Position numbers and translations under genes: made by a program. From positions 3,776,001 to 3,840,000 of the forward strand of contig OY762897.2 in assembly GCA_963666515.2 (NCBI GenBank): 64,000 nucleotides of DNA. The letters run 5' to 3'. Below are positions 36,753 through 50,133 of this stretch, one piece after another. Origin of the DNA: Candidatus Binatia bacterium. Its GTDB lineage: Bacteria > Desulfobacterota > Binatia > UBA9968 > JAJDTQ01. The notes below the pieces were generated by a model. That model was not told the origin of the DNA. It saw only the letters and a list, made by a program, of their open reading frames with translations, and ran no database searches. Position 1 is the stretch's first letter; each line of letters begins with the position of its first letter.

Positions 36753-37733
36753 TCATTCAACCGTCCTGCGCATCAGGACCAGGTTGTCGAGGACGAGATT
36801 GGACGACCAGATGAACTGTGCGTCGGCCGCCGGGTCGTCGAACACGTCGTGGAAGTTCATGAACGCGGGCTTGTTGTCGACACCGACGGTGTCATTGGAA
36901 AAGACGGTGGCGAGCGGCCAGCCGCTGTCGTCGAAATCGGGCGCAAACCAGTTGCCGGGCACCGGCCAGTGGGCAGCGGAAAACGTGCTTCCGTCCTGAA
37001 CGCCGGCCGTCGCGCACTGGGAGCTGTCGCGAACCGGGCCTTCGAGCTTCAAGCACGATCGATCATTGAGCGGCGCGGTGTAAAACGTCTGCGCGCGCCA
37101 GGATTTATCCGTAATGGCAACCGTGCGCCCCTTTTCATCCTTGATGACCGCAACAAACCCGGCATCACCCGGATGGTAGGCGACGCGCCTGTTCCGTTCT
37201 GAACCAAGCCCCAGGTTTTCTTCCCAGTCGACACCCATCACGGCGATCGTGAAGGGCCGGTTCGCCTTGAAACGAACCACGCTGGAGTTGAACGGCGTGA
37301 AGGGAATCGCGTCAACGCCGAGCAACTTGCCGTTGACGTAGAACTCGAAATAGTTGTCGGCGAAAATATATGCCGCGAAGGTTTCCTCACCACCGGCGTC
37401 GATCACCGGTACTTTCTTGTGATCGAGGTCGGAGAGCTGACGCAGTCGAACGCCGCTGCATTGGTTGTAGAGGTCAGCGGCCTTCATTGCCGTCTGAAAG
37501 TGCGTGTCTGCGGGCACGACCCACCGCCTGCCATCGTCCGACCTGATCACACCGACGGGACTGACGCGCGCGCGAGCCTCGTGACACACGAACAGGCCGG
37601 GATTGGTGGTCTTCGCCGGCCCCGTCGTGAACGAGGGTGTATCCTGCGCTTGCACACCCCCGGAAAGAGCGATTGTCATTGCGAACGCGAGAGCCGCGGC
37701 TTCGACAGATTTCCAGTTGGAAAAGATAATCAT
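36753..37733 (-). CDS. Secreted conserved hypothetical protein
   Basis: Signal peptide ending GVQA; FADNYFEFYVNG, DWEENLGLG, GDAGFVA, FIWSSNLVLDN; function not recognised. Confidence 0.75.
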   Translation of the reverse strand: MIIFSNWKSVEAAALAFAMTIALSGGVQAQDTPSFTTGPAKTTNPGLFVCHEARARVSPVGVIRSDDGRRWVVPADTHFQTAMKAADLYNQCSGVRLRQLSDLDHKKVPVIDAGGEETFAAYIFADNYFEFYVNGKLLGVDAIPFTPFNSSVVRFKANRPFTIAVMGVDWEENLGLGSERNRRVAYHPGDAGFVAVIKDEKGRTVAITDKSWRAQTFYTAPLNDRSCLKLEGPVRDSSQCATAGVQDGSTFSAAHWPVPGNWFAPDFDDSGWPLATVFSNDTVGVDNKPAFMNFHDVFDDPAADAQFIWSSNLVLDNLVLMRRTVE

Positions 37734-37937: not shown

Positions 37938-39536
37938 ATGTCACTGCGATATTTCCTCACCACGTTGACGGTTCTGGCGTGGGTCCTGGTTTCGGTGCCC
38001 GAGGCCGCGGCGCAATCGGCGGACACCATCATCTCGAACGGGAAGATATTGACCGTCGATCCAAGTTTTTCCGTCGCCCACAGTCTGGCTATCGATGACG
38101 GCCGGATCGTGGCCGTCGGTTCAGCCGAGGCGGTGGCCCGCCACAAAGGTCCGAATACCCGGATCATCGACCTGGGGGGCAGGACGGTGATCCCCGGCTT
38201 GATCGACAATCACTTCCATTTCATCCGCAGTGTCTGGAACTACCAGCGCGAAGTCCGTCTCGACGGGATCACGAGCCGGGCCGAGGCTTTGGCGATGATT
38301 GCCGCGAAAGCGGCTTCGGCGCCCAGGGAGCAGTGGATTACCGTGCTCGGCGGCTGGTCGCCGGCCCAGTTCAGGAACGAGCCGGGCGGCTTCACGCTCG
38401 CCGAGCTGGATGCGGCGGCACCCGACAATCCCGTCTACATTCAGCAAAGCTACCGCACGGCTTATGCCAACAGCGCGGCCTTGAAGGCGGTGGGCCGGGA
38501 CCCCGCCGAAGGCGCCCGGATGCGCGGGCGGCAAAGCTTCCGGGCTTTCGGGCGCTTCATCGGCTGGCGCAACAAGAGCTCCAGCAGAAAAGCGATACTC
38601 GCCTATATGGCCGCGCTGAATCGATTGGGTTTGACGACGGTCTACGATATCGGACGGCCGAGCGAGGGCAGGCTGGCGCCGGTTGCAAGCCTGGCTGCCG
38701 CCGGGCCGATGCCGCTGCGGGTCTTCCACACGCTGCGCTACCGCGCCACCGATCCCCAAAGCACGGACGATGCCCTGAAACTCATAACGGGTGGTGCTGC
38801 AAAGCCGTTCAGCACGACGGATCAATTCGGCGTGATCGGACTGGGCGAGCACATATACGGACCGATGCATGACCGGGCCAATCGCCGGGAACGCTGGGAA
38901 GAATCTGTCTGGGGTCCCGTACGCACCATTTCGCGCGCCGCCGCCAAGCACGGTTGGCCGATCCACGAACACACCATGAGCGGACCTACCATTTCCCAGT
39001 TCATCGATCTGGTCGAGGAGATCGCGTTCGACACCCCCAATGTCAAGGAGCTGCGCTGGACGCTGGCGCATTCGTTGGGGATCACCGAACCGGACCTGAA
39101 TCGAGCTCGCAGGTTGGGGGTGGCCGTTGCCGTGCACTCCCAGGCGATGATGAGCTCGCGGTCGCGCAACCGTCCGCCTCTCGGCAGCATCGAGCGTTCC
39201 GGAGTCCTGTGGGGGTTGGGCTCGGACGGCGCCATCGTCGCGCCGATCAACCCGTTTCTGACCCTCGGCTGGGCCGTGACGGGCCACAATATCGCGGGGC
39301 AGAGGGCCTGGAGCGAGGATCAACGCGTCTCCCGCAAGGCCGCCCTCATCGCCCATACGATCAACAACGCGAAGTTGCTGTTCAAGGAAAAGAGTCTCGG
39401 GTCACTGGAACCCGGCAAGCTGGCGGATCTCGTCGTGCTCGACCGTGACTACTTGACGGTCCCGCCGGAACAGATCGCCGCTATCCGGCCCGTCCTCACC
39501 ATGACAGGCGGTCGGATCACCTTCGAAGAGAACTAG
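37938..39536 (+). CDS. Exported amidohydrolase family 3 (YtcJ-like)
   Basis: Signal peptide; NGKILTVD, DLGGRTVIPGLIDNHFH, RWTLAH, GSDG, GSLEPGKLADLVVLD. Confidence 0.9.
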   Translation: MSLRYFLTTLTVLAWVLVSVPEAAAQSADTIISNGKILTVDPSFSVAHSLAIDDGRIVAVGSAEAVARHKGPNTRIIDLGGRTVIPGLIDNHFHFIRSVWNYQREVRLDGITSRAEALAMIAAKAASAPREQWITVLGGWSPAQFRNEPGGFTLAELDAAAPDNPVYIQQSYRTAYANSAALKAVGRDPAEGARMRGRQSFRAFGRFIGWRNKSSSRKAILAYMAALNRLGLTTVYDIGRPSEGRLAPVASLAAAGPMPLRVFHTLRYRATDPQSTDDALKLITGGAAKPFSTTDQFGVIGLGEHIYGPMHDRANRRERWEESVWGPVRTISRAAAKHGWPIHEHTMSGPTISQFIDLVEEIAFDTPNVKELRWTLAHSLGITEPDLNRARRLGVAVAVHSQAMMSSRSRNRPPLGSIERSGVLWGLGSDGAIVAPINPFLTLGWAVTGHNIAGQRAWSEDQRVSRKAALIAHTINNAKLLFKEKSLGSLEPGKLADLVVLDRDYLTVPPEQIAAIRPVLTMTGGRITFEEN

Positions 39537-39641
39537 GCCAGTCGGGACGCTCCGCGTGGAGCGCTTGTGCCCGCCAAATGTGCTATATTGCATCCGATTC
39601 GGCGTCACAGGTGCCGGATGATGCGAAAGGGAGTGGCGTAC

Positions 39642-40265
39642 ATGAGGGTAGTTCTCTCAAGAACGGTCGGCATCGCGGCGCTGGCGCTCGCGTTCGTTCT
39701 TGCGCCCGGTACGGAGGCGTCCGCCCACAAGTCCATCCTCAAGGTCGAGTTCGCCGAACGGCGCGAGCTGAACGTCCTCATCGACGACTTCGTCCTCACC
39801 GACAAGGACGGCGAGCGGGTGGAGTTCCGCAAGCTCCGGGGCAAGCCCCTGGTCATCAACTTCATGTACACGTCGTGCCCGGACGTTTGTCCGTTGCTGA
39901 CCGCGAGCCTCAAGATCCTCCGCGACCACATGAAGCCGGCGGAAGCCCGGGACATCCACTTCCTGTCCATCACCACGGACCCCGAAGTGGATACCCCGAA
40001 GGTGCTCAATGCCTACAGCCGGCGGCACGAGGCCGACGCCCCCAACTGGTCGTGGCTGACGGGCGAAGCCCGCGAGCTGGCGCCGGTGTGGCAGGGTTTC
40101 GGCGTCAGCGTGAAACGGATCGCCAAGGGGCTCATCGAGCACACCACGCTGACGGTGGTGGCGGACGCGGAGGGCTACATGCGCTTCGCCTACTTCGGCT
40201 CCGCACCGGACCCCGATGTGCTGTTGAAGGATCTGCGGGCGCTTGAAACACGTCCATCGACCTGA
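39642..40265 (+). CDS. SCO1/SenC family copper chaperone (second copy)
   Basis: DFVLTDKDG, FMYTSCPDVCP, SITTDPEVDTP, IEHTT. Confidence 0.92.
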   Translation: MRVVLSRTVGIAALALAFVLAPGTEASAHKSILKVEFAERRELNVLIDDFVLTDKDGERVEFRKLRGKPLVINFMYTSCPDVCPLLTASLKILRDHMKPAEARDIHFLSITTDPEVDTPKVLNAYSRRHEADAPNWSWLTGEARELAPVWQGFGVSVKRIAKGLIEHTTLTVVADAEGYMRFAYFGSAPDPDVLLKDLRALETRPST

Positions 40266-40283
40266 CGGAATTTCTCGTGGTGG

Positions 40284-40394
40284 CGTCCTTCGACTTCGCG
40301 CCGCTGACGCGGCGCTACGCTCAGGACGAACGGAGACATGTTTTCCCGTTCGCCCTGAGCGTAGCGAGGCGTAGCCGAGCGAAGTCGAAGGGCG
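40284..40394. repeat. Palindromic repeat family B, two-arm element
   Basis: CCTTCGACTTCGC..GCTACGCTCAGGACGAACGG / CCGTTCGCCCTGAGCGTAGC..GCGAAGTCGAAGG. Confidence 0.85.
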
Positions 40395-40405
40395 GAGGCT
40401 GAGCC

Positions 40406-42505
40406 GTGGAATCGCTGCTGAGCGATATCGCATGGGAGACCATCTGGGTCTTTTACGAGGCCTCGATCTATCTCCTGGCCGGCTTCTTCGTCGCCGGACT
40501 CCTGCACGTCTACCTGCCGGCGAACGTCATCGCGAGGCACCTGGGCCGGAACGACGCGCGCTCGGTGGGCCTGGCGGCGCTTTTCGGCGCGCCGATCCCC
40601 CTGTGCTCGTGCGGCGTCCTGCCGGCGGCGGCGTCCCTGAAGCGGCAGGGGGCCGGGCGGGCGCCGCTGGTCTCGTTCCTGATCTCGACCCCCGAGACCG
40701 GGGTGGACTCCGTGGCGTTGACCTACGGGCTCATGGGCCCGGTCATGGCGGTGGTCCGTCCCGTGGTGGCGGTGGTGACCGCGCTGATCGCCGGCATCGC
40801 CTCCATGGGCGTCAGGGAGGACCCGGAAGGCGCGCCGCGGTCCGGCGCATCCTGTGACGACGCCTGTGCGGAGAGCGGAACGCCCGAAGATTCGCGCGAC
40901 GACGCCTGTGCGCCCGACAGTGCGCTGCCGCACGGCCGCCGCCGTTTCTTCCATTCCCTGGAATACGGCTTCAGCTCGGTGCTGGACGACATCGCGCTGT
41001 CGCTCGTGGTCGGCTTGGTGCTGACCGGCATCCTGGCCGGCCTTCTGCCCGACGGCTTCTTCACCGACGTGCTCGGGTGGGGCTCCGGTCTCATGCCGAT
41101 GCTGGCGATGATCGTGGTCGGCCTGCCGCTGTACACCTGCGCCAGCGCCTCCACCCCCATCGCCGCGGCGCTCATGGCCAAGGGTCTTTCCCCCGGTGCC
41201 GCGCTCGTCTTCCTGCTGGTGGGGCCGGCCACCAACCTGGCCACCATGACCGTGGTCGGACAGCTCCTGGGCCGCCGTCATCTCGGCGTCTACCTCGGCG
41301 CCATCGTGCTGGTGAGCCTGGCCGCGGGCCTGCTGGTGGACGCGACCGTGGCGGACTACATCCACGTGGCCCCCTTCGGCGACCTGGGGCAGGACGGCGA
41401 CGTCGTATTCGCCCTCAAGGCGCTGTCCGCGGTGGCCCTGGCGCTGCTGCTGCTGCGGAGCTTCCGGCGCAAGGGCATTGGCGCCACTTGGCGGGATGCC
41501 GCGACACAGCTCCGTCAGACCGGCCAGGCTCTCAGGGCCTTGCGCCCCGGCAACCTCCTCCAGGGACCGGTGCTCGCGGCTGCGCTTGTGATCGCGCTGC
41601 TCGCCGCCGTCCCCGCGTTCACGCTCATCGTCGGGCCGGGCCAGCGCGGCGTCGTCCAGCGGTTCGGCCGGGTGGTGGCCGCCGGTCTCGAACCCGGCCT
41701 GTACTTCCATCTGCCGCCGCCCTTCGGCAACGGAACCGCGGTGGACGTGGCGCTGGTCCGCCAGGTGGCGGTGGGCTTCCGGGGCGGCGTCAACGGCGCC
41801 CGGCCTGTGCTCGACGAGCAGGCGTTCTACCTCACCGCGGACGGCAACATCATCGACATGCGGGCCGTGGTCCAGTACCGCGTCCGGGATCCGGCGGTGT
41901 ACGCCCTGGGCGTCGAGGAGACCCCGGCGGTGGTGCTCGGGCTGGCCCGGCGCGAGCTGGTCAGCCTGTTGAGCCGCAAGCCCATCGACAGGATCTACAC
42001 CGTGGACCGGAGGGCCACGGAACGGGCGCTGCGCGACCGCCTGGCCAAGCGCCTTGCGGCCCTGGGAATCGGCAGCGAGGTCCTGGACGTGCGGCTGCTG
42101 GACGTGCACGCGCCGGCACGGGTCCACGACGCCTTCCGCGACGTCGCCAGCGCGCTGGAGGATCGCCAGCGCGACATCCACGTGGCCACCGGCGGGGCGA
42201 AGCAGTCCACCGCGGCGGCCGCGGGCGAGGCCGCGCGCATCACCGAGCGCGCCGAGGGACGCGCGGTGCGCGAGGTCAAGCGGGCCGAGGGACGCTCCGC
42301 CGCCTTCCGCGCCACCGCGGCGGTGCACGCCGCCAGCCCTGCGGTCACCGAAGCCCGCCTCTACCTGGAAACCCTGGAGGATTCCCTGGAGCTGCCGCGG
42401 AAGTACATCTACATGCCGGGGACGGGCGTGGACCTCTGGCTGGGCAGCCCGTCGGTGGATTTCATGAACCTCGGGGCTCCCCATCCTCGAAGCGGAGATC
42501 GATAG
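40406..42505 (+). CDS. ArsP/SO_0444 (DUF318) metal permease fused to an HflK-like SPFH domain
   Basis: N-half: PLCSCGVLP, SFLISTPETGVDS, PLYTCASASTP, GAALVFLLVGPATN. C-half: GVVQRFGR, PGLYFHLPPP, LTADGNII, VQYRVRDP, DAFRDV, RLYLETLE. RBS GGAGG before GTG. Confidence 0.88.
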   Translation: MESLLSDIAWETIWVFYEASIYLLAGFFVAGLLHVYLPANVIARHLGRNDARSVGLAALFGAPIPLCSCGVLPAAASLKRQGAGRAPLVSFLISTPETGVDSVALTYGLMGPVMAVVRPVVAVVTALIAGIASMGVREDPEGAPRSGASCDDACAESGTPEDSRDDACAPDSALPHGRRRFFHSLEYGFSSVLDDIALSLVVGLVLTGILAGLLPDGFFTDVLGWGSGLMPMLAMIVVGLPLYTCASASTPIAAALMAKGLSPGAALVFLLVGPATNLATMTVVGQLLGRRHLGVYLGAIVLVSLAAGLLVDATVADYIHVAPFGDLGQDGDVVFALKALSAVALALLLLRSFRRKGIGATWRDAATQLRQTGQALRALRPGNLLQGPVLAAALVIALLAAVPAFTLIVGPGQRGVVQRFGRVVAAGLEPGLYFHLPPPFGNGTAVDVALVRQVAVGFRGGVNGARPVLDEQAFYLTADGNIIDMRAVVQYRVRDPAVYALGVEETPAVVLGLARRELVSLLSRKPIDRIYTVDRRATERALRDRLAKRLAALGIGSEVLDVRLLDVHAPARVHDAFRDVASALEDRQRDIHVATGGAKQSTAAAAGEAARITERAEGRAVREVKRAEGRSAAFRATAAVHAASPAVTEARLYLETLEDSLELPRKYIYMPGTGVDLWLGSPSVDFMNLGAPHPRSGDR

Positions 42506-42506
42506 A

Positions 42507-43505
42507 ATGGCCAGACGCATTGCCGCGGTTCTCCTGCTGGCGCTGGTGGTGGTGGTCGCCGCCACTTCCTTCGTGGTGGTGGACGAGAGGAGCCACGCGG
42601 TCATCACCCAGTTCGGCAGGCCGGTCTCGGTGCTGAGCGACGCCGGCTTCTATCTCAAGCTGCCGGTGCCCTTCCAGCGCGCGCGTCTCCTCGACAAGCG
42701 CATCCTCATCACCAACACGCAGGAGACCGAGCTGCTGACCGCGGACAAGAAGAACGTGCTGGTCTCCACCTACATCTCCTGGAAGATCGCCGACCCGTTG
42801 CGGTACCTGGCGGCGCTGCGCACCCGGGAGTTCGCGGAGAACCGTCTGGCCGCGCTGGTGCAGTCGGAGTTGGGCAGCGCCCTGGGGGACCGGCCCTTCG
42901 GCACGATCCTCGGCGCCGGCGGCAACGGCGCCAGCCTGGCCGAGCTGGAAGGATCGGTGGCGGACGCCGTGGCCAAGGTGGCGCAGGAGGACCTGGGGAT
43001 CGAGGTGGTGAGCCTGGGCGTGACCCGCCTCATCTTCCCGCAGCAGAACCTCGACAGCGTGTTCGCGCGCATGCGGGCCGAGCGTGCGCGCATCGCCCGC
43101 GGCCATCGCTCGGAGGGACGCGCCGAGGCCCAGAAGATCGCCGCCCGGGCGGAGCGGGAAAGGGCGCGGATCATCGCCGACGCCGAGGCCGAGGCTGCCA
43201 AGCTGCGGGGCAGGGGCGAGGCGGAGGCGGCGCGCATCTACGCGGGGGCCTACGAGGGACACGGCGAGTTCTATCGCTTCCTGCGCACGCTGGAGGCCTA
43301 CAAGAAGGTCCTGAACGAGAAGACCACGCTGGTGCTGCCGGCGGACTCGCCGTTCCTGGATCTCTTGACGTCGCGGATTCCGAGCGCCGGAGCGGGACCG
43401 CGGCGGGACGGCCAGGCGCCGGAGCGGAAGGGGGAAGCGCCGGCTCGGGCCGGCGCCTCCCACGATGCCAAGCCGGGCGAGAGCGGGCGCGACACGGGCT
43501 CATGA
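42507..43505 (+). CDS. hflC: HflC-like SPFH protein
   Basis: AVITQFGRP, LTADKKN, WKIADP, RMRAER, RSEG, FYRFLRTLEAY, TLVLPADSPF. Confidence 0.9.
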   Translation: MARRIAAVLLLALVVVVAATSFVVVDERSHAVITQFGRPVSVLSDAGFYLKLPVPFQRARLLDKRILITNTQETELLTADKKNVLVSTYISWKIADPLRYLAALRTREFAENRLAALVQSELGSALGDRPFGTILGAGGNGASLAELEGSVADAVAKVAQEDLGIEVVSLGVTRLIFPQQNLDSVFARMRAERARIARGHRSEGRAEAQKIAARAERERARIIADAEAEAAKLRGRGEAEAARIYAGAYEGHGEFYRFLRTLEAYKKVLNEKTTLVLPADSPFLDLLTSRIPSAGAGPRRDGQAPERKGEAPARAGASHDAKPGESGRDTGS

Positions 43506-44398
43506 GCGGACGGCGGCGATACTGGACGCTGCTCTCGGGCGCGGTCCTTTTGGCGGGCTACCTGGGGCTCGGGGTCTACAACGTCGAATCCGACGAGAGC
43601 GCGGTGGCCTACGTGCTCGGCCGGGCGGTGGGCCGCGACGTGCTTCCGGGAATACACTGGAACCCGCCGTGGCCGTGGGGTCGGGTGGCGGTCGCCCGGA
43701 CCGCGACCAACTTCATCATGCCGGTGGAGCACTCCGATCCCGGAGGAACCGAGGAGTCCCTCTGGCTGCTGGGCGACACCAACGTCATCGTCGGCAGGCT
43801 GGGCATCCAGTACAGCATCCGCAGCCTGACCCGGTTCGAGGTCTCTCACGAAGACCCGCGCGAGCTGCTGCGCCGGGCCGGCCGCCGGATCGTGACGCGG
43901 TTCCTGGCCGGCGAGAACGTGGACGCCGCGCTCACCACCCGCAGGAGCGACCTGCTGACCGCGGTGCAGCGGCAGGTCCAGTCGATACTCGACGGCCACG
44001 GCACAGGCATCGAGATCCAGTCGGTGAACATCCAGGCGCTGGCGCCGCCCGAGCAGGGCGGCGTGCGCCAAGCCTTTCAGGAGGTCCAGAGCGCCCTGGC
44101 GGACCGGGAGCGGGTGGTGGAGGAGGCCCGCGCCGACCGCGCCCAGATCCTCGCGGAGGCGGAGGGGGAAGCGGAGCACCGCGTGAACCAGGCCGAGGCG
44201 GCGCGCCACCGGCGCGTGGAGATCGCCAAGGGCGAAGGCGAGCGCTTCCGCGGTCTGGCGCTGGAGCACCGCAGGACCCCCAAGCTCACCGAAGAACGGC
44301 TCTACCTCGAAGCCATCGAAGAGATCCTGCCGCGCATGGAAACTTACGTCGTCCAGTCGGGACCGGACGGCAAGGTCAACCTGCGCGTGGTCCGGTGA
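43502..44398 (+). CDS. hflK: HflK-like SPFH protein
   Basis: PGIHWNPPWP, GDTNVI, IQYSI, PP...VRQAFQEV, AEGEA, TEERLYLEAIEEIL. Confidence 0.88.
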   Translation: MSGRRRYWTLLSGAVLLAGYLGLGVYNVESDESAVAYVLGRAVGRDVLPGIHWNPPWPWGRVAVARTATNFIMPVEHSDPGGTEESLWLLGDTNVIVGRLGIQYSIRSLTRFEVSHEDPRELLRRAGRRIVTRFLAGENVDAALTTRRSDLLTAVQRQVQSILDGHGTGIEIQSVNIQALAPPEQGGVRQAFQEVQSALADRERVVEEARADRAQILAEAEGEAEHRVNQAEAARHRRVEIAKGEGERFRGLALEHRRTPKLTEERLYLEAIEEILPRMETYVVQSGPDGKVNLRVVR

Positions 44399-44422
44399 GG
44401 CGCGAAGGGCCGGTTCCCCGCC

Positions 44423-44467
44423 TTGACAACCCGATGTACTGAGAATAGGATATCATTATCTATTCTC
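44423..44467 (+). promoter_or_regulatory. Sigma70 promoter overlapped by a Fur/Zur-like inverted repeat
   Basis: TTGACA (44423)-17 nt-TAGGAT (44446); perfect arms GAGAATAG-N11-CTATTCTC (44441-44467); reverse strand reads GATAATGATATCC, resembling a Fur-family box. Confidence 0.7.
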
Positions 44468-44488
44468 GTTCGAGGGGGGTCGTATAAA

Positions 44489-45730
44489 ATGAAGAGACTG
44501 ACAGGTTCTTTCCTTGCGATCGTTGCGGGCCTTTGGATCGGTATTCACCCGGCGCTCGGCAGCGAGTCGAAGGTGGGCGTGGTAGCCAGCATCCTGCCCG
44601 TCGCCTATGTCGCCCAGGAGTTGGGAGGCGAGCGCGCCCAGGTCGACGTGCTGGTGCCGCCGGGCGCGAGCCCCCACACTTTCGAACCGGTACCGAGCGA
44701 CATGGTCAAGCTGCAACGCGCCCGCCTGTTCCTGAAGGTCGGCGCCGGCCTGGACGCATGGTCCGACAGGCTCCGGGGCGCGGGTTCCGGCGAGCTCGAG
44801 AGGGTAACCCTCATCTCCGTGCCGGGATTGAAGCCCCTCGAGGGCGGCCATGATCACCATGATCACGGCCACGGGAAGAAGCACGACGACCACGGCCACG
44901 ACCAGGAGAAGAAGGCGGAGAAACACGACGACCACGGCCACGACGAGAAACATGCGAAGAAGGACGATCACCACGGCCATGACCATGGTGAAAAGAAGGC
45001 GAAGAAGCATGACGATCATGGCCACGAGGAAAAGCACGCGAAACACGATGACCACGGTCACGACGAGAAGAAAGCCGAGAAACACCACGACCACGGCCAT
45101 GACGAGAAACATGCGAAGAAGCATGATGACCACGGCCACGACGAGAAGAAAGCCGAGAAGCACGACGACCATGGCCACGAGAAGCATGCCGAGGAGTCGG
45201 GTGAGGGAATGGACCCCCACTTCTGGCTGGACCCGATACGGGTCAGGGACGCGGTGGTTCCGGTGATCGTGGAACATCTCATCGAAGCGGATCCGGCGGG
45301 CAAGGAATACTACGAGAAGCGCGGCCAGGACTTCCATAAGCGGTTGACGGCGCTGGATGTCCAGGTCCGGCGGGAGCTTGCCAAGGCCAAGGGCCGGAAG
45401 TACGTCGCCTTTCACAACGCTTGGGTCTACTTTTCCGAGCGGTACAACGTCGAGGAAGTGGCGGTGGTCCAGGAGTTCGCGGGTGAGGAGCCGACCCCCA
45501 GGGAGGTGGCCGCGCTGGTGCAAGGCGCGCGTGAGGCCGGGATCCGGAACATCCTGGTGGAGCCGCAGTTCAGTCCGCGGGTGGCCCAGACCATCGCAAG
45601 CGAGTTCGGCGGCGGCACGGTGATGGTGGACCCGTTGGGGGACTCCGGCGATCCGGCGCGTTCCAGCTACGAGAAGCTGATGCTGTTCAACGCGCGCGCC
45701 TTCGCGCAGGCGTTGGGGGGCAAGAATTGA
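44489..45730 (+). CDS. znuA: Zinc ABC substrate-binding protein with a very long His-rich loop
   Basis: GASPHTFEP, DPHFWLDP, AFHNAW, EEPT, DPLG; nine HGH-containing repeats. Confidence 0.92.
   Translation: MKRLTGSFLAIVAGLWIGIHPALGSESKVGVVASILPVAYVAQELGGERAQVDVLVPPGASPHTFEPVPSDMVKLQRARLFLKVGAGLDAWSDRLRGAGSGELERVTLISVPGLKPLEGGHDHHDHGHGKKHDDHGHDQEKKAEKHDDHGHDEKHAKKDDHHGHDHGEKKAKKHDDHGHEEKHAKHDDHGHDEKKAEKHHDHGHDEKHAKKHDDHGHDEKKAEKHDDHGHEKHAEESGEGMDPHFWLDPIRVRDAVVPVIVEHLIEADPAGKEYYEKRGQDFHKRLTALDVQVRRELAKAKGRKYVAFHNAWVYFSERYNVEEVAVVQEFAGEEPTPREVAALVQGAREAGIRNILVEPQFSPRVAQTIASEFGGGTVMVDPLGDSGDPARSSYEKLMLFNARAFAQALGGKN
44849..45190 (+). repeat. Coding tandem repeat (HDDHGHDEKKAEK/HDDHGHDEKHAKK-like units)
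   Basis: Nine units, about 35 His by manual count. Confidence 0.9.
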
Positions 45731-46515
45731 CCGAACGCAACGAACCGGTCGTGGTGGGGCTGAACGGCGTGTCGGTGGAGTTGGGCGGCCGCAGCGTCCT
45801 GCACGACATCAACTTCAACGTGCACGAAGGCGGGTTCGTGGGCATCGTGGGCCCCAACGGAGCCGGCAAGACCACGCTCCTGCGCACGATCCTCGGCCTC
45901 GTGCCCGTGGTGAGCGGCCGGGTGGAAGTGTTCGGCTTCCCGCCCGGCCGCAACGGCTCCCACGCCATCGGCTACGTGCCGCAGCGCCAGAGCATCGCCG
46001 ACAACTTCCCGGCCACGGTCGGTGACGTGGTGATGATGGGGCGGCTGCGGCACCTGGGGCTCATGAGGTTCCCCGGCCGGGAGGACTGGCAGCGGGTGGA
46101 CGACAGCCTGGCGCTCGTGGGCATGCGGGACCGCAGGGACCGCGCCGTGGGACGCCTGTCCGGCGGCGAGCAGCGCCGGATCATGCTGGCGCAGGCGCTG
46201 TGCGCCAGCACCCGCCTGCTGGTGCTCGACGAGCCCACGGTGGGGCTCGACCTCCCCGCGGAGCACGAGTTCTACGCGCTGCTGCGGAAGCTCATCCGCG
46301 ATCTGACCCTGACCATCGTGGCGGTGTCCCACGACCTGGTGGCGCTGGCCGGCGAGACCGACGAGCTGATCTGCATCAACCACCGCATGCACATCCACGG
46401 CAACGCCGAGGAGGTGATCCACAGCCACGCCATCCGCGAGGCCTACTGCTGCGAGTTCGACTTCCTGGCCGGCGAGATCGCCCACCACGAGAGCCACGAC
46501 CACGTCGAGTCCTGA
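45727..46515 (+). CDS. znuC: Zinc ABC ATP-binding protein
   Basis: GPNGAGKTT, GYVPQ, LSGGE, LDEPT, SHDL; Cys/His-rich tail. Confidence 0.9.
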   Translation: MTERNEPVVVGLNGVSVELGGRSVLHDINFNVHEGGFVGIVGPNGAGKTTLLRTILGLVPVVSGRVEVFGFPPGRNGSHAIGYVPQRQSIADNFPATVGDVVMMGRLRHLGLMRFPGREDWQRVDDSLALVGMRDRRDRAVGRLSGGEQRRIMLAQALCASTRLLVLDEPTVGLDLPAEHEFYALLRKLIRDLTLTIVAVSHDLVALAGETDELICINHRMHIHGNAEEVIHSHAIREAYCCEFDFLAGEIAHHESHDHVES

Positions 46516-46563
46516 CGACCGGCGCCTCCATCACGGGTTGAACGTCCTCCCATAGCGTCCCTC

Positions 46564-47364
46564 ATGTTCGAATTTGCCTTCATGCAGCGCGCCCTGGCGG
46601 CGGCGGTCCTGGTGGGCCTGCTGTGCGGTATCCTGGGCTTCTTCGTGGTCCTGCGGCGCCTGGCGTTCATCGGCGTGGGCATTTCCCACTCGGCCATCGG
46701 CGGCGTCGCCATCGGCATCCTGGCGGGCTGGAACCCGCTCGTGACCGGCGCCGTTTTCGCGGTCTCCGTGGCGCTGGGCATCGCGCTGGTCAGCCAGAGC
46801 GGCCGCGTCAGCGAAGACACCGTGATCGGCGTGTTCTTCTCGGGGTCGATGGCGCTGGGGATCGTGCTCTTCAGCATGAAGAGCGGCTACCAGCAGGATC
46901 TCTTCAGCTACCTCTTCGGCAACGTGCTGGCCATCTCCACCGCCGAGCTCGTTGCCCTTTCCTGCGCGAGCGCGGTGATCATGGCGGTCATCGTCCTGAC
47001 CTTCAAGGAGCACCTGCTGATCGCGTTCGACGAGGAAGTGGCCTCGGCCTACGGCCACAAGGTCGTCGCGCTCAACGTGCTGCTGCTGGTGATGCTGGCC
47101 CTGACCGTGGTCATCGGCGTGCGGCTGGTGGGCCTGCTGCTCATCCAGGCTCTGCTGGTGGTGCCGGCGGCCATCGCGGCGCTGTGCGTGATGAACTTTC
47201 GCTGGCAGGTGCTGCTGTCTGCGCTGGTGGGGTCCGTCTCCGGCGTCGCCGGCCTGGTGCTGGCCTATCAACTGGACATCGCCGCCGGCGGAGCCATCGT
47301 GCTGGTGGCCGTGGCGCTCTTCTTCGTCACCCTGGTGGCCCGCCTGCTGGGCAGCCGCGGGTAG
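46564..47364 (+). CDS. znuB: Zinc ABC permease
   Basis: FMQRAL, GISHSA, EDTVIG, SYLFGNVL, FDEE. Confidence 0.9.
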   Translation: MFEFAFMQRALAAAVLVGLLCGILGFFVVLRRLAFIGVGISHSAIGGVAIGILAGWNPLVTGAVFAVSVALGIALVSQSGRVSEDTVIGVFFSGSMALGIVLFSMKSGYQQDLFSYLFGNVLAISTAELVALSCASAVIMAVIVLTFKEHLLIAFDEEVASAYGHKVVALNVLLLVMLALTVVIGVRLVGLLLIQALLVVPAAIAALCVMNFRWQVLLSALVGSVSGVAGLVLAYQLDIAAGGAIVLVAVALFFVTLVARLLGSRG

Positions 47365-47433
47365 GGAACCGCGACGTCTGCCCGCACCCCGCGGCATCCA
47401 CCCGTACCCCTTTCGTCATTCTCGCTCCCCTTC

Positions 47434-47461
47434 CGTCATTCCGGCGAAAGCCGGAATCCAG
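47434..47461. repeat. Palindromic repeat family A, single arm, between convergent znuB genes
   Basis: CGTCATTCCGGCGAAAGCCGGAATCCAG. Confidence 0.9.
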
Positions 47462-47478
47462 GGGTGGCGGAGGGGTGC

Positions 47479-48285
47479 TTACGAGGCGCCGGAGCCTGCC
47501 TTCACCGGGAAACGCAGCCGCGTCACCACGAACAACGCCAGCGCCGCGGTCACGATGGAGGGACCCGATGGCGTATCCAGCGTCGCCGAGGCCAGCAGCC
47601 CGCCGGCGATGGCGAGAATCCCCGCCGCGGCCGCGCCGACGGCCATCTTCTCGGGACTCGAGGCAAAGCGCCGGACCGTCGCTGGCGGTATCACCAGCAA
47701 CGCCACCACCAGCAGGATCCCGACGATCTTCACCGCCACCGATATGAGCGCCGCCACCAGGATGCCGAACACCAGCCGCGCGCGTTCCGGCCGGAGTCGC
47801 GCCACCGTGGCGAGATCGACGCTCACGGTGGCCGCCAGGAGCGGGCGCCAGATCCACCACAGCACCCCCAGGACGCAGGCGCCGCCCGCCCAGATGACAG
47901 CGAGGTCCGTTTGCGTCACCGCCAGGATGTCGCCGAAGAGCAGCGCGTGCAGGTCGACTCGCATGTCCGGGAAGAAGGCCAGGACCACCAGGCCCAGCGA
48001 AAGCCCTCCGTGGGCGAGCAGGCCGAGTAAGGTGTCGGTGGGCAGGGTGTCGCTACGCTCGAGAAAGAACATGATCAGCACCACGGAGGAGGCCGTGGCG
48101 AAGATGCCAATGGAAATGTCGATGTCCAGCACGATGGCCACCGCGACCCCCAGCAGGGCCGAGTGGGCGATGGTCTCGCCGAAGTAGGCCAGTCGCCGCC
48201 AGACCACGAAGCACCCCGCCGGACCGGTGACCAGCGCCAGTCCCACACCGGCCAGCAGCGCGCGCATGAAGAAGTCGTCCAGCAT
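47479..48285 (-). CDS. znuB: Zinc ABC permease (second system, proteobacterial ZnuB type)
   Basis: MLDDFFMRALLAG, VVWRRLAYFG..AHSALLG, DTLLGLLAH, LFGDIL, DTPSGPSIV. Confidence 0.92.
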   Translation of the reverse strand: MLDDFFMRALLAGVGLALVTGPAGCFVVWRRLAYFGETIAHSALLGVAVAIVLDIDISIGIFATASSVVLIMFFLERSDTLPTDTLLGLLAHGGLSLGLVVLAFFPDMRVDLHALLFGDILAVTQTDLAVIWAGGACVLGVLWWIWRPLLAATVSVDLATVARLRPERARLVFGILVAALISVAVKIVGILLVVALLVIPPATVRRFASSPEKMAVGAAAAGILAIAGGLLASATLDTPSGPSIVTAALALFVVTRLRFPVKAGSGAS

Positions 48286-48288
48286 GGA

Positions 48289-48987
48289 TCAATACCGGGA
48301 GTCGTCCTCGTCGCTCTCCGCCAACGACCGGAAGGCTTCGATGCCGAAGGGCGGGTCGTCATGTTCGTGCGGCACCAGGACCACGAGGTCGTCGCCCGTG
48401 TTCATGGCCTTCTGGAGGTCGTGGGAGATGATCAGGACGCCGCAGCCGAGGTCGCGGCGGATCCCTTCGAGCAGCTCCTGCAAGACGTCCGTGCCGCTGG
48501 CGTCGACGCCCTGTTCGGGTTCGTCAAGCACCAGCAGGTCGGGCCGGTGGATGAGCGCCCGCGCCAGCAGCAACCGCTGGAACTCGCCCCCCGACAGGGT
48601 GGTGACCGGCGGGTCGCCGAGCCGTTCGAGACCCACGGCAGCGAGGGCGGCATCGATCCGGGCGGGAGCGAAACGGCCGGTCAGAGTCATCAGGCGGCGC
48701 AGGGTCAACGGCAGGGTCGGGGTCACCGTCAGTCTCTGCGGGACATAGCCCACGTGCAGAGACGGCGCCCGCTCCACCTGACCCTCGGTGAGGTCGATCA
48801 AGCCGAGCACGGCCTTGACGCAGGTGGACTTGCCGGCGCCGTTGGCGCCGATGAGGTAGACCATGTCGCCGCGGGCCACCTTGAGGTCCACGTGGCGGAA
48901 GATCCAGCGCTCGCCCCGCCGCACGCCGATGTCGCGGGCGTCGACGAGCCTGTCGGGTGCGGCATGCGGTGTGCCGGGGGTGTCCAT
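48289..48987 (-). CDS. znuC: Zinc ABC ATP-binding protein (second system), C-terminus apparently shortened
   Basis: GANGAGKST, GYVPQ, LSGGEFQR, LDEPEQGVD, ISHDL. Confidence 0.88.
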   Translation of the reverse strand: MDTPGTPHAAPDRLVDARDIGVRRGERWIFRHVDLKVARGDMVYLIGANGAGKSTCVKAVLGLIDLTEGQVERAPSLHVGYVPQRLTVTPTLPLTLRRLMTLTGRFAPARIDAALAAVGLERLGDPPVTTLSGGEFQRLLLARALIHRPDLLVLDEPEQGVDASGTDVLQELLEGIRRDLGCGVLIISHDLQKAMNTGDDLVVLVPHEHDDPPFGIEAFRSLAESDEDDSRY

Positions 48988-49088
48988 CAGCGCGCGCGGG
49001 AGCTTGGGGCAATCGATCGCACTTGATCGCTTGAAGCGTTCCGGTTAGTTTCTCGCAAAAATCCAACCCGCGCTCAAGGGGCGACGTC

Positions 49089-50024
49089 ATGATGGGCAGA
49101 AACGTTTTGCCGGTACTGCTGTTTTCCTGCGCGATGGCCGGATCCGCGGCGGCCAGCGCCGCGGATCGGGTCGTGGCCACGTTCAAGCCGGTGCACTCGC
49201 TGGTGAGCGCCGTGATGGCCGGGGTGGGCGAGCCTCACCTGATCATGCGCGGCGCGGCCTCGCCGCACACCTACCGCATGCGCCCGTCCGACGCCCGGGT
49301 GATCGGTAAAGCCCGCGTCATCTTCATGATCGGCGAGGCCGTCGAGAATACGCTGGCCGGACCCATCCGCAAGCTCGGCGGAAAAGCCCGCGTGGTGGAG
49401 TTGGGAAAGGTGCCGGGGCTGGTCCGCATGCCGCTCCGCAAGGGCGGCGGGTTCGAGGACGAAGACCACGGCCACGGACATGATCACGGGCACGAAGACG
49501 ACGCCTTCGACATGCACGTCTGGCTCGACCCGGTGAATGCCGGGTTGATGGCGCTGGTCATCGCCCGCAACCTTGGCGAGGTCGATCCGGCCAATGCCGC
49601 GAAGTACCAGGCCAACGCCGACGCCGTGATCGCCGGACTGGACGAGTTGACCGCGAAGCTCGACGCGGAACTGGCCCCGGTGCGGGACAAGCCCTTCATC
49701 GTGTTCCACGACGCCTACCAGTACTTCGAGAAGCGCTTCGGCCTCAGGGCCGTGGGTTCTGCGGTGGTCAGCACGGGCCGGTCGCCCGGCGTCCGCCGCG
49801 TCAGGGAACTGCGCAAGAAGGTGCGCGACCTGGGTGTCGTCTGCGTACTCGCCGAGCCCCGCTACGACCCGCGCTTCGTCAAGCTCATTACCGAAGGCAC
49901 CAAGGCGCGCGGCGGCACCGTCGATCCCGCGGGCACGGCCATCAAGCCCGGACCCGGGATGTACGTCAGCCTGTTGCGCAACATGGCCAAATCGTTCAGG
50001 GAGTGCCTGGCGCCAGCCGGTTAG
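49089..50024 (+). CDS. znuA: Zinc ABC substrate-binding protein (second system)
   Basis: KPVHSLV, ASPHTY, short His loop, DMHVWLDP, VFHDAYQYFE, CVLAEP. Confidence 0.92.
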   Translation: MMGRNVLPVLLFSCAMAGSAAASAADRVVATFKPVHSLVSAVMAGVGEPHLIMRGAASPHTYRMRPSDARVIGKARVIFMIGEAVENTLAGPIRKLGGKARVVELGKVPGLVRMPLRKGGGFEDEDHGHGHDHGHEDDAFDMHVWLDPVNAGLMALVIARNLGEVDPANAAKYQANADAVIAGLDELTAKLDAELAPVRDKPFIVFHDAYQYFEKRFGLRAVGSAVVSTGRSPGVRRVRELRKKVRDLGVVCVLAEPRYDPRFVKLITEGTKARGGTVDPAGTAIKPGPGMYVSLLRNMAKSFRECLAPAG

Positions 50025-50033
50025 CCCCGCAGC

Positions 50034-50133
50034 CGTCATTCCGGCGAAAGCCGGAATCCAGACGGGGTGAGGCGAGGCAGCACGCCCGTTTGCCCCTCCC
50101 CACCCCTGGATTCCGGCTTTCGCCGGAATGACG
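50034..50133. repeat. Palindromic repeat family A, two-arm element (100 bp) between convergent genes
   Basis: Both arms intact. Confidence 0.92.

Follow-up and report, generated by a model that had tools for sequence, protein, structure and literature searches.

HflK and HflC are described in published structural work as forming cages or open "nautilus" assemblies around FtsH; the roles of bacterial SPFH scaffolds beyond FtsH are an open question, and the clients of such scaffolds are usually inferred from weak co-purification. The locus treated here raises the question of whether a scaffold of this type can be built around a metal permease. It lies in a 64,000-nt stretch of the genome of a Candidatus Binatia bacterium (assembly GCA_963666515.2, contig OY762897.2, denoted C1; C1:3776001-3840000), which we call the window and whose numbering is used below unless a position carries the prefix C1. 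The locus consists of three consecutive genes: a fusion gene, in which a permease of the SO_0444 family is joined to an HflK-like part (K1); a gene for an HflC-type subunit (C); and a gene for a free HflK-type subunit (K2). The analysis was performed by computation and covers the gene order, the fusion, the families, the logic of the membrane topology, the conservation, the separation of clades, the neighbouring genes, and the separate canonical hflKC and ftsH genes of the same genome. The module is a widespread and genuine variant of the HflK/C system, apparently undescribed in print, and we judge it rather likely that its three SPFH subunits tether a Zn/Cu permease and that the module works within zinc homeostasis.

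Gene organization of the locus

The three genes were assigned as follows.

40406-42505, plus strand: fusion gene (permease, linker and HflK-like K1); 699-aa open reading frame (ORF) with a GTG start
42507-43505, plus strand: gene for the HflC-type subunit (C); 332-aa ORF
43502-44398, plus strand: gene for the free HflK-type subunit (K2); 298-aa ORF

As read from the sequence, the junction between the fusion gene and the gene for C is TAG-a-ATG (1-nt gap), and that between the genes for C and K2 is ATGA (4-nt overlap). A profile scan of the fusion ORF, proposed in an earlier note that had been made from the letters of this DNA alone, found both ArsP_1 (Pfam PF03773; residues 17-311, E = 2e-42) and Band_7 (PF01145; residues 408-595, E = 7e-20), and the ORFs of C and K2 both match Band_7 as well. 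With the NCBIfam models, C passes the hflC cut-off (TIGR01932; 189.4 bits, cut-off 134.4), and the fusion (147.6 bits, residues 408-666) and K2 (148.0 bits) fall short of the hflK cut-off (TIGR01933; 159.4); in some other genomes, K1 (161-166 bits) and K2 (182-222 bits) exceed it. The arrangement described in the earlier note (a 699-aa permease-HflK ORF, then hflC after a 1-nt gap, then hflK with an ATGA overlap) is thus borne out by the ORFs, both sets of models and the reading of the junctions, and so is the placing of the trio between a SCO gene and znuABC (Pfam matches to SCO1/SenC upstream and to ZnuA, ZnuC and ZnuB downstream).

Reality and distribution of the fusion

The same in-frame fusion, whose occurrence in other genomes was a point to be checked, is common. 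The locus set was obtained by scanning one genome per species, which gave 80 loci; the permease and HflK-like halves lie in one frame in 50 of these, over more than 10 phyla in the set, with frameshifts in L056 and truncation by contig ends in L062 and L069. Both Pfam domains were present in 120/120 clusters among those listed by a protein search (46-100% identity, 638-780 aa), and among the best 150 representatives (50% identity) from a library of 1.84 billion proteins, 123 had both halves (82 by a strict coverage rule). According to the record titles, the sources are Binatia, Myxococcota, "Deltaproteobacteria", Eiseniibacteriota, Spirochaetales, Emcibacteraceae, Gemmatimonadota, Acidobacteriota/Holophagales, Planctomycetota/Phycisphaerae, Burkholderiales, Rokuibacteriota and Tectimicrobiota; Bradyrhizobium australiense (strain WSM 1791, L034) and B. 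erythrophlei are cultured carriers. The distribution is patchy: the full fusion was found in 2 of the 201 genomes sampled from the window's phylum, one being the window's own. In 72,556 plasmid records the fusion was found in none, and one record held an unfused relative.

Contigs from independent data also bridge the junction, as the earlier note had asked to be confirmed. A contig of run X1 spans 41221-41667 with no difference from the window, and a contig of 5313 nt that stems from another study (run X5) spans 40396-44398 with 137 substitutions and 0 gaps. Contigs from the RNA library of run X23, which belong to a relative of about 91% identity, span the junction and the C/K2 boundary; they are not evidence of transcription. 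Runs X5 and X23, which hold close relatives of the locus (about 97% and about 91% identity, respectively), are labeled sponge metagenome in their records. That the fusion is an assembly chimera, or arose from a stop codon lost in this genome only, is hardly conceivable in view of the 50 of 80 loci, the 120 clusters, the bridging contigs, and the conserved length of the linker (see below); nothing was found in its favour.

The permease part

The following features were assigned in the permease part.

40406-41473, plus strand: permease part, residues 1-356, including an extra C-terminal transmembrane helix (332-356) (NF033936 and AlphaFold2 (AF2) model)
40598-40615, plus strand: PLCSCG motif, residues 65-70, in the break between helices 51-60 and 68-80
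40808-40933, plus strand: central loop, disordered and with many Cys, Asp and His, residues 135-176 (from the predicted local distance difference test (pLDDT))
41132-41146, plus strand: YTCAS motif, residues 243-247, at the second helix break (240-245)

The fusion scores 357.8 bits against the SO_0444 family model NF033936 (cut-off 300; residues 14-351), of which it covers positions 3-349 of 351; in the genome search the score was 360.2 bits, and the fused gene is the sole member of the family in the genome (next match, 26 bits). All three elements named in the earlier note, that is, PLCSCG, YTCAS and a Cys/Asp loop (about residues 147-176), are present. C67, S68 and C69 of PLCSCG and Y243, C245 and A246 of YTCAS are invariant in alignments of 20, 86 and 51 sequences, and the breaks in the helices of the AF2 model coincide exactly with the two motifs. 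The loop has a pLDDT below 50 at residues 147-173, varies from 33 to 92 aa among relatives, and has two or more Cys or three or more His in 71/86 of them.

The function of the family is known from Shewanella, in which SO_0444 is reported to be needed for growth under ZnSO4 or CuCl2 stress, with complementation, and to sit in an operon with a ZntR-like regulator (PMC3219624); in the sources consulted, the phenotype of tolerance to excess Zn/Cu is known for NF033936 only from this protein. Cys-Ser-Cys (CSC) is described as the motif that marks the family, and selenocysteine is reported in it for some members. As a side observation, seven unfused SO_0444 relatives from the window's phylum (G148, G096, G059, G099, G006, G058 and G179) contain one in-frame TGA each, which fits the selenocysteine (USC) variants of CSC described in a preprint.

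The AF2 model of residues 1-380 alone has a pLDDT of 86.3 and a predicted template modelling score (pTM) of 0.84. Its best fold matches with VIA-align were ArsB (Z 12.0), Pho90, TRAP-QM, VcINDY, INDY, YdaH, NaS1 and CNT; 13 entries of the elevator-type carrier class were found at Z 12.0-7.7 (about 250-280 residues aligned) and the next entry at Z 5.0, where it is to be noted that, for helical bundles, a Z below about 13 may reflect a common arrangement. Foldseek gave no match of this model in the Protein Data Bank (PDB) at E <= 0.001, and the PDB sequence search returned HflK and stomatin chains only, with no solved relative of the permease part. An elevator-type fold, ArsB/DASS-like, is a lead from the modelling.

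The linker and the HflK-like part

The remainder of the fusion was divided as follows.

41474-41563, plus strand: basic helical linker, residues 357-386, predicted to be cytoplasmic (helix 358-378; K+R fraction 0.25)
41564-41620, plus strand: K1 membrane anchor, residues 387-405 (from hydropathy; helix 387-405; aligns with the anchor region of E. coli HflK)
41621-42382, plus strand: K1 SPFH domain (residues 406-568) and coiled-coil helices (571-643 and 645-659) (AF2 and Foldseek)
42107-42127, plus strand: K1-specific His568 ... His574 at the junction of the SPFH domain and the coiled coil

In the AF2 model of the whole fusion (pLDDT 82.4), a transmembrane helix, the SPFH domain, a 73-residue helix and a short helix follow one another in the manner of HflK. 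The top Foldseek match of K1 was HflK (7vhq_E, E = 1.2e-12), with further matches, down to E = 1e-5, to stomatin, prohibitin, erlin, QmcA(-YbbJ) and flotillin cages; by AF2 and Foldseek, K1 thus has the SPFH fold and the long wall helix of cage-forming proteins. K1 and K2 share the layout of HflK: a single N-terminal anchor, an SPFH part that homology and the basic linker place in the periplasm, a coiled coil, and an adjacent hflC. Since the SPFH parts of HflK/C are reported to be oriented to the periplasm, and since the linker is basic, the linker is probably cytoplasmic and the SPFH part of K1 periplasmic. The span from R355 to V409 (linker and anchor) is exactly 55 aa in 85 of 86 relatives; as this span is fixed while the central loop of the permease ranges from 33 to 92 aa, the joint is probably rigid.

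The 73-residue coiled-coil helix has the same length in 86/86 relatives, and the second helix is likewise conserved. These observations bear on an alternative without a closed cage, in which the SPFH part would be a regulatory or lipid-organising tail of the transporter, stomatin-like, and C and K2 would surround single permease dimers as small oligomers or arcs. It draws on a solved SPFH-channel pair (aquaporin 1-stomatin, 9zd2), on solved HflK/C assemblies that are open and incomplete (9cz2), and on the resemblance of the modelled permease fold to dimeric carriers whose scaffold domain stays fixed. The constancy of the two helices, which form the wall and the cap in solved cages, speaks against it, and the three distinct subunits in every complete locus (see below) fit a large hetero-oligomer better; we regard this alternative as quite unlikely. 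A complex prediction of K1 (residues 380-699) with C and K2, made with alignments, scored 0.04, which weighs neither for nor against binding.

The histidines at the end of the SPFH domain are specific to K1. His568 and Arg578 are conserved in 48/48 and His574 in 47/48 K1 sequences; at the columns of 568 and 574, His occurs in 0/43 K2, at most 1/45 C, 0/5 canonical HflK and 0/4 canonical HflC sequences. Among 115 cluster representatives, H568 was found in 110, R578 in 110 and E585 in 111. The His568/His574 pair may be a site that senses or binds metal, for which we regard it as a candidate.

Free-standing K1-type proteins were also sought at an identity of at least 40%, which gave 13 short clusters and no clear split form; 11 of the 13 lie on contigs shorter than 3 kb, and these are therefore probably fragments. 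An hflK-like gene was found beside unfused permeases in 0/30 loci.

Conservation and phylogeny of the trio

Among 49 related fusion loci, an HflC-type gene follows the fusion in 47 (the other two reach a contig end) and a K2-type gene comes next in 45 (contig end in the other four); the order of fusion, HflC and HflK2 is kept in all 45 loci with enough downstream DNA. The SPFH tree (150 proteins) splits HflK-like from HflC-like proteins with a Shimodaira-Hasegawa-like approximate likelihood ratio test (SH-aLRT) value of 99, and both K1 and K2 fall on the HflK side. Each of them is a single clade apart from the 5 canonical HflK (K1, 48 rows, SH-aLRT 99; K2, 43 rows, SH-aLRT 99), and the C of the module is not cleanly separated from canonical HflC. 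As K1 and K2 each form one clade, the K1/K2 duplication and the fusion are old, and the three genes have travelled together. In loci from alpha- or beta-proteobacteria or Rokuibacteriota (L033-L035, L049 and L056), an extra HflC-like gene precedes the fusion; this fourth SPFH gene forms its own clade (4 rows, SH-aLRT 100), and a fragment resembling HflC stands at the edge of the L069 contig. An ORF of the FmdA/AmdA family lies upstream in L033, L034 and L056; the Pfam check was made on the L034 ORF only.

In the tree of the permease domains (unfused, L059-L090; fused, L011-L058), the unfused relatives branch from within the fused ones. A single origin of the fused permease domains was rejected by the approximately unbiased (AU) test (p = 3.9e-8), in which the group had been chosen after the tree was seen. 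The conflict between the trees, in which K1 is one clade and the fused permeases are not, suggests that the SPFH tail was lost secondarily or that permease domains were exchanged.

Canonical HflK/C and FtsH in the same genomes

The window contains neither ftsH nor hflX, as had been noted from the letters, and the genome locates both elsewhere: its only ftsH is at C1:4555741 and hflX is at C1:4486066. A search for a separate canonical hflKC locus found one at C1:2751460, hflK (291.7 bits) followed by hflC, so the module is a second set. A separate hflK above the cut-off is likewise present in 4 of 5 other module-bearing genomes; in the fifth, that of a planctomycete (G204, the genome of L053), no hflK exceeds the cut-off except the module's own K2, and the module, which may be the sole HflK/C-type system of that genome, could therefore be the FtsH partner there.

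A column of the SPFH alignment (residue 519 of K1) that holds Arg in 5/5 canonical HflK and 4/4 canonical HflC holds Gly in 40/45 of the module's C and Thr in 34/43 K2; K1 has Arg in 24/48 loci and Val in 18/48, and Arg in 69 of the 115 cluster representatives. Arg191 of E. coli HflK is published as an FtsH contact. In HMMER alignments to 7vhq/7vhp, however, the nearest conserved Arg counts as 193, and as the two numberings do not agree, the column serves as a hint only.

These data bear on whether the module is still an accessory of FtsH. In such a case, the ring of K1, C and K2 would dock FtsH, the fusion would hold the permease within the protease chamber, and the amount of permease would be set by regulated proteolysis, for example by removal under zinc scarcity. 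FtsH is the established partner of HflK/C, all three proteins retain the fold and the coiled coil of HflK/HflC, and both the planctomycete genome with no hflK besides that of the module and the Arg retained in part of K1 agree with a role of this kind. The canonical hflKC pair that is kept here and in four of the five other carriers argues against it, as do the absence of ftsH from all 80 fetched loci, where one weak AAA match was found, and, although the column is not tied to Arg191, the loss by C and K2 of the Arg found in the sampled canonical proteins. On balance we hold an accessory role to be unlikely, and a three-subunit module that tethers the permease is the reading followed below.

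Neighbouring genes and the link to zinc

Besides the trio, the following features were assigned around it.

39567-40265, plus strand: SCO1/SenC gene (Pfam PF02630), upstream of the fusion gene
44423-44467, plus strand: upstream of znuA, promoter-like site (TTGACA, 17 nt, TAGGAT) and 27-nt palindrome (44441-44467), the two overlapping
From 44489 (probable true ATG), plus strand: znuA (Pfam ZnuA)
45727-46515, plus strand: znuC (Pfam ABC_tran)
46564-47364, plus strand: znuB (Pfam ABC-3)

For the tally of neighbours, the ORFs of 50 loci (49 related loci and the window) were clustered and the clusters were checked with Pfam. The sole recurrent partners of the module are zinc importers, which are adjacent on the same strand in 25/50 loci. 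These are ZnuABC in nine (the window, L011-L014, L016, L018, L055 and L039) and ZIP in 16, 11 directly upstream of the fusion and five directly after K2. The stop of K2 overlaps the start of znuA in L013, L014, L016, L018 and L055, and the stop of the ZIP gene overlaps the start of the fusion in L037, L041, L042 and L051. SCO1 is adjacent in only 3/50 loci, the window and its closest relatives L011 and L012; the other neighbours include an Fe/Mn superoxide dismutase (4/50) and a thioredoxin-NHL protein (4/50). The association with metal genes supposed in the earlier note therefore stands for the zinc importers and not for the SCO copper chaperone.

Unfused SO_0444 relatives adjoin regulators of the ArsR type (13/30) or the MerR type (6/30); such a pairing, with MerR/ZntR or ArsR, is a contextual feature that lies outside the NCBIfam definition of NF033936. 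As these regulators stand beside the unfused but hardly ever beside the fused form, the latter may have changed its role.

With regard to regulation, the sigma-70-like site ahead of znuA is the only one found in 39500-47500. The start of znuA at 44489 was chosen from the signal-peptide-like N-terminus and the GAGGGGGG site upstream. A genome search for the 27-nt palindrome that allowed up to 2 mismatches returned this single site, from which no regulon can be derived; related TGAGAATA..TATTCTCA palindromes are found at the same place in the closest relatives L011 and L012. Fur-family proteins of the genome are encoded at C1:3760519 and C1:3566696. A scan with the classical Fur-box consensus, allowing up to 6 mismatches, over 49 loci (L011-L058 and the window stretch) was uninformative and missed the window's own palindrome. 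As znuA in the window has a promoter-like site and a palindromic putative operator of its own, znuACB can probably be regulated on its own.

Two observations concern the znu genes themselves. A tandem repeat (44877-45180; period 39 nt, 7.6 copies) inserts about 100 aa into ZnuA; it encodes His/Asp/Lys-rich units of the type HDDHGHDEKHAKK and makes the His-rich loop unusually long for a zinc-binding ZnuA. A second znu locus follows right after the first (47479-50024), with znuB and znuC on the minus strand and, pointing away from them, a second znuA whose His-rich stretch is shorter.

Proposed mechanism and its weighing

The mechanism that we favour would work as follows. K1 would carry the complete SO_0444-family Zn/Cu permease on its cytoplasmic, N-terminal side, and the short basic helical linker of fixed length would join the last helix of the permease to the K1 anchor. 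By homology with E. coli HflK/C, the anchors of K1, C and K2 would each cross the membrane once, and their SPFH and coiled-coil parts would face the periplasm and assemble side by side, probably into a ring. The permease would then be held rigidly at the wall of a membrane patch delimited by SPFH proteins, and the ratio of K1 to K2 would set the number of permeases per assembly. The invariant Cys-Ser-Cys and Tyr-x-Cys sites in the broken helices would move Zn(II) or Cu(I), by analogy with SO_0444 probably as efflux, and the periplasmic His568/His574 pair of K1 could couple the scaffold and the transporter. The module as a whole would act in zinc homeostasis alongside the ZnuABC or ZIP importers.

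Several observations weigh against this mechanism. Half of the loci (25/50) have no adjacent metal gene and unrelated housekeeping neighbours instead, and the fused loci have an ArsR-like neighbour in 1/51 and a MerR-like neighbour in 0/51. Where partners exist, they serve import, whereas the annotation of the permease family is efflux, so that the direction and the logic of transport are in doubt. In this window, to judge from the promoter and operator candidates of znuA, co-regulation with the trio does not necessarily follow. His574 is kept in only 88 of the 115 cluster representatives, and the planctomycete genome and the partial retention of the canonical-column Arg in K1, both set out above, belong here too.

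A more far-reaching view is that the SPFH proteins would form a periplasm-facing dome, an FtsH-independent metal nanocompartment whose floor would hold the tethered Zn/Cu permeases and whose lining would include His568/His574. The permeases would fill the chamber from the cytoplasm, and the chamber would buffer or store zinc or hand it to the ZnuA/ZIP systems. If true, this would be a bacterial metal-handling compartment built from an SPFH cage; we think it very unlikely.

For the tethered permease, which we prefer, the significance is of a different kind. The fusion names an SPFH client (a metal permease), a physiological field (zinc homeostasis) and a defined geometry (the fixed linker), and it lets one ask what an SPFH assembly does to a transporter, how three types of subunit are arranged in one ring, and whether HflK/C-type rings work without FtsH. 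Cultured Bradyrhizobium strains are among its carriers, which makes bench experiments on these points feasible. With regard to annotation, pipelines name the fused protein either "SO_0444 family Cu/Zn efflux transporter" or "HflK protein", and each name hides one half.

Other features of the window

The interval from SCO1 to the fusion gene contains a dispersed palindromic repeat of about 110 bp (40286-40398, no strand; from genome matches and folding). On both strands together the genome holds 85 matches to this repeat, which folds at -84.4 kcal/mol (z -9.1); the read depth over it is very high, with many loose ends, and it is not at the same position in the closest relative L011. A second hairpin lies at about 50038-50129. 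A search of the palindromic repeats against Rfam gave sub-threshold miRNA-like matches only, and no riboswitch. A 326-aa ORF at 36753-37733 on the minus strand has a signal-peptide-like N-terminus and no Pfam family match.

Comparison with known systems

No published description of the permease-HflK fusion or of the trio was found in a literature search that lay outside subscription journals and supplementary files, in agreement with the earlier note, which knew of none. Nor did the literature yield a report of any transporter covalently fused to an SPFH scaffold subunit, and the words permease, transporter and zinc are absent from a 2009 survey of prokaryotic SPFH proteins.

The module resembles the E. 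coli HflK/HflC-FtsH complex (PDB 7VHP, 7WI3 and 9CZ2) in its adjacent hflK-type and hflC-type genes and in proteins with a single N-terminal anchor, a periplasmic SPFH part, a long coiled-coil helix and a short second helix. It differs in having two HflK-type subunits, from old and separate clades, instead of one, and in that one of them bears a polytopic metal permease; K1 and K2 of the window both lie below the hflK equivalog cut-off, and the module coexists with a canonical hflKC pair, with no link to FtsH found in the genome or in the 80 loci.

With SO_0444 of Shewanella oneidensis (NF033936; ArsP_1; ArsP family of TCDB), the permease part agrees in a score above the cut-off, in coverage of the full profile and in the retained CSC, whereas it carries about 340 extra residues of HflK-like sequence. 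It also differs from the unfused SO_0444 relatives in having zinc importers as neighbours instead of ZntR/ArsR-type regulators. In the permease tree, the unfused forms nearest in sequence nest among the fused ones. Structurally, the closest matches of the permease model are the ArsB, DASS (VcINDY), TRAP-QM, AbgT and CNT carriers, with a sequence identity of just 7-13%. The lead of an elevator-type fold disagrees with a published sequence analysis, which assigns the ArsP family to the TOG superfamily and gives it a topology of 4+4 transmembrane segments.

The principle of an SPFH oligomer with a specific membrane protein is described for stomatin-aquaporin 1 (9ZD2), for the SPFH-NfeD pair QmcA-YbbJ (8Z5G), and for the prohibitin and erlin cages, and in bacteria such pairs of an SPFH protein and its membrane client are reported to be encoded in one operon, as in the module. 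In contrast to stomatin-aquaporin 1 or QmcA-YbbJ, the client in the module is covalently joined to the scaffold subunit through a linker of fixed length.

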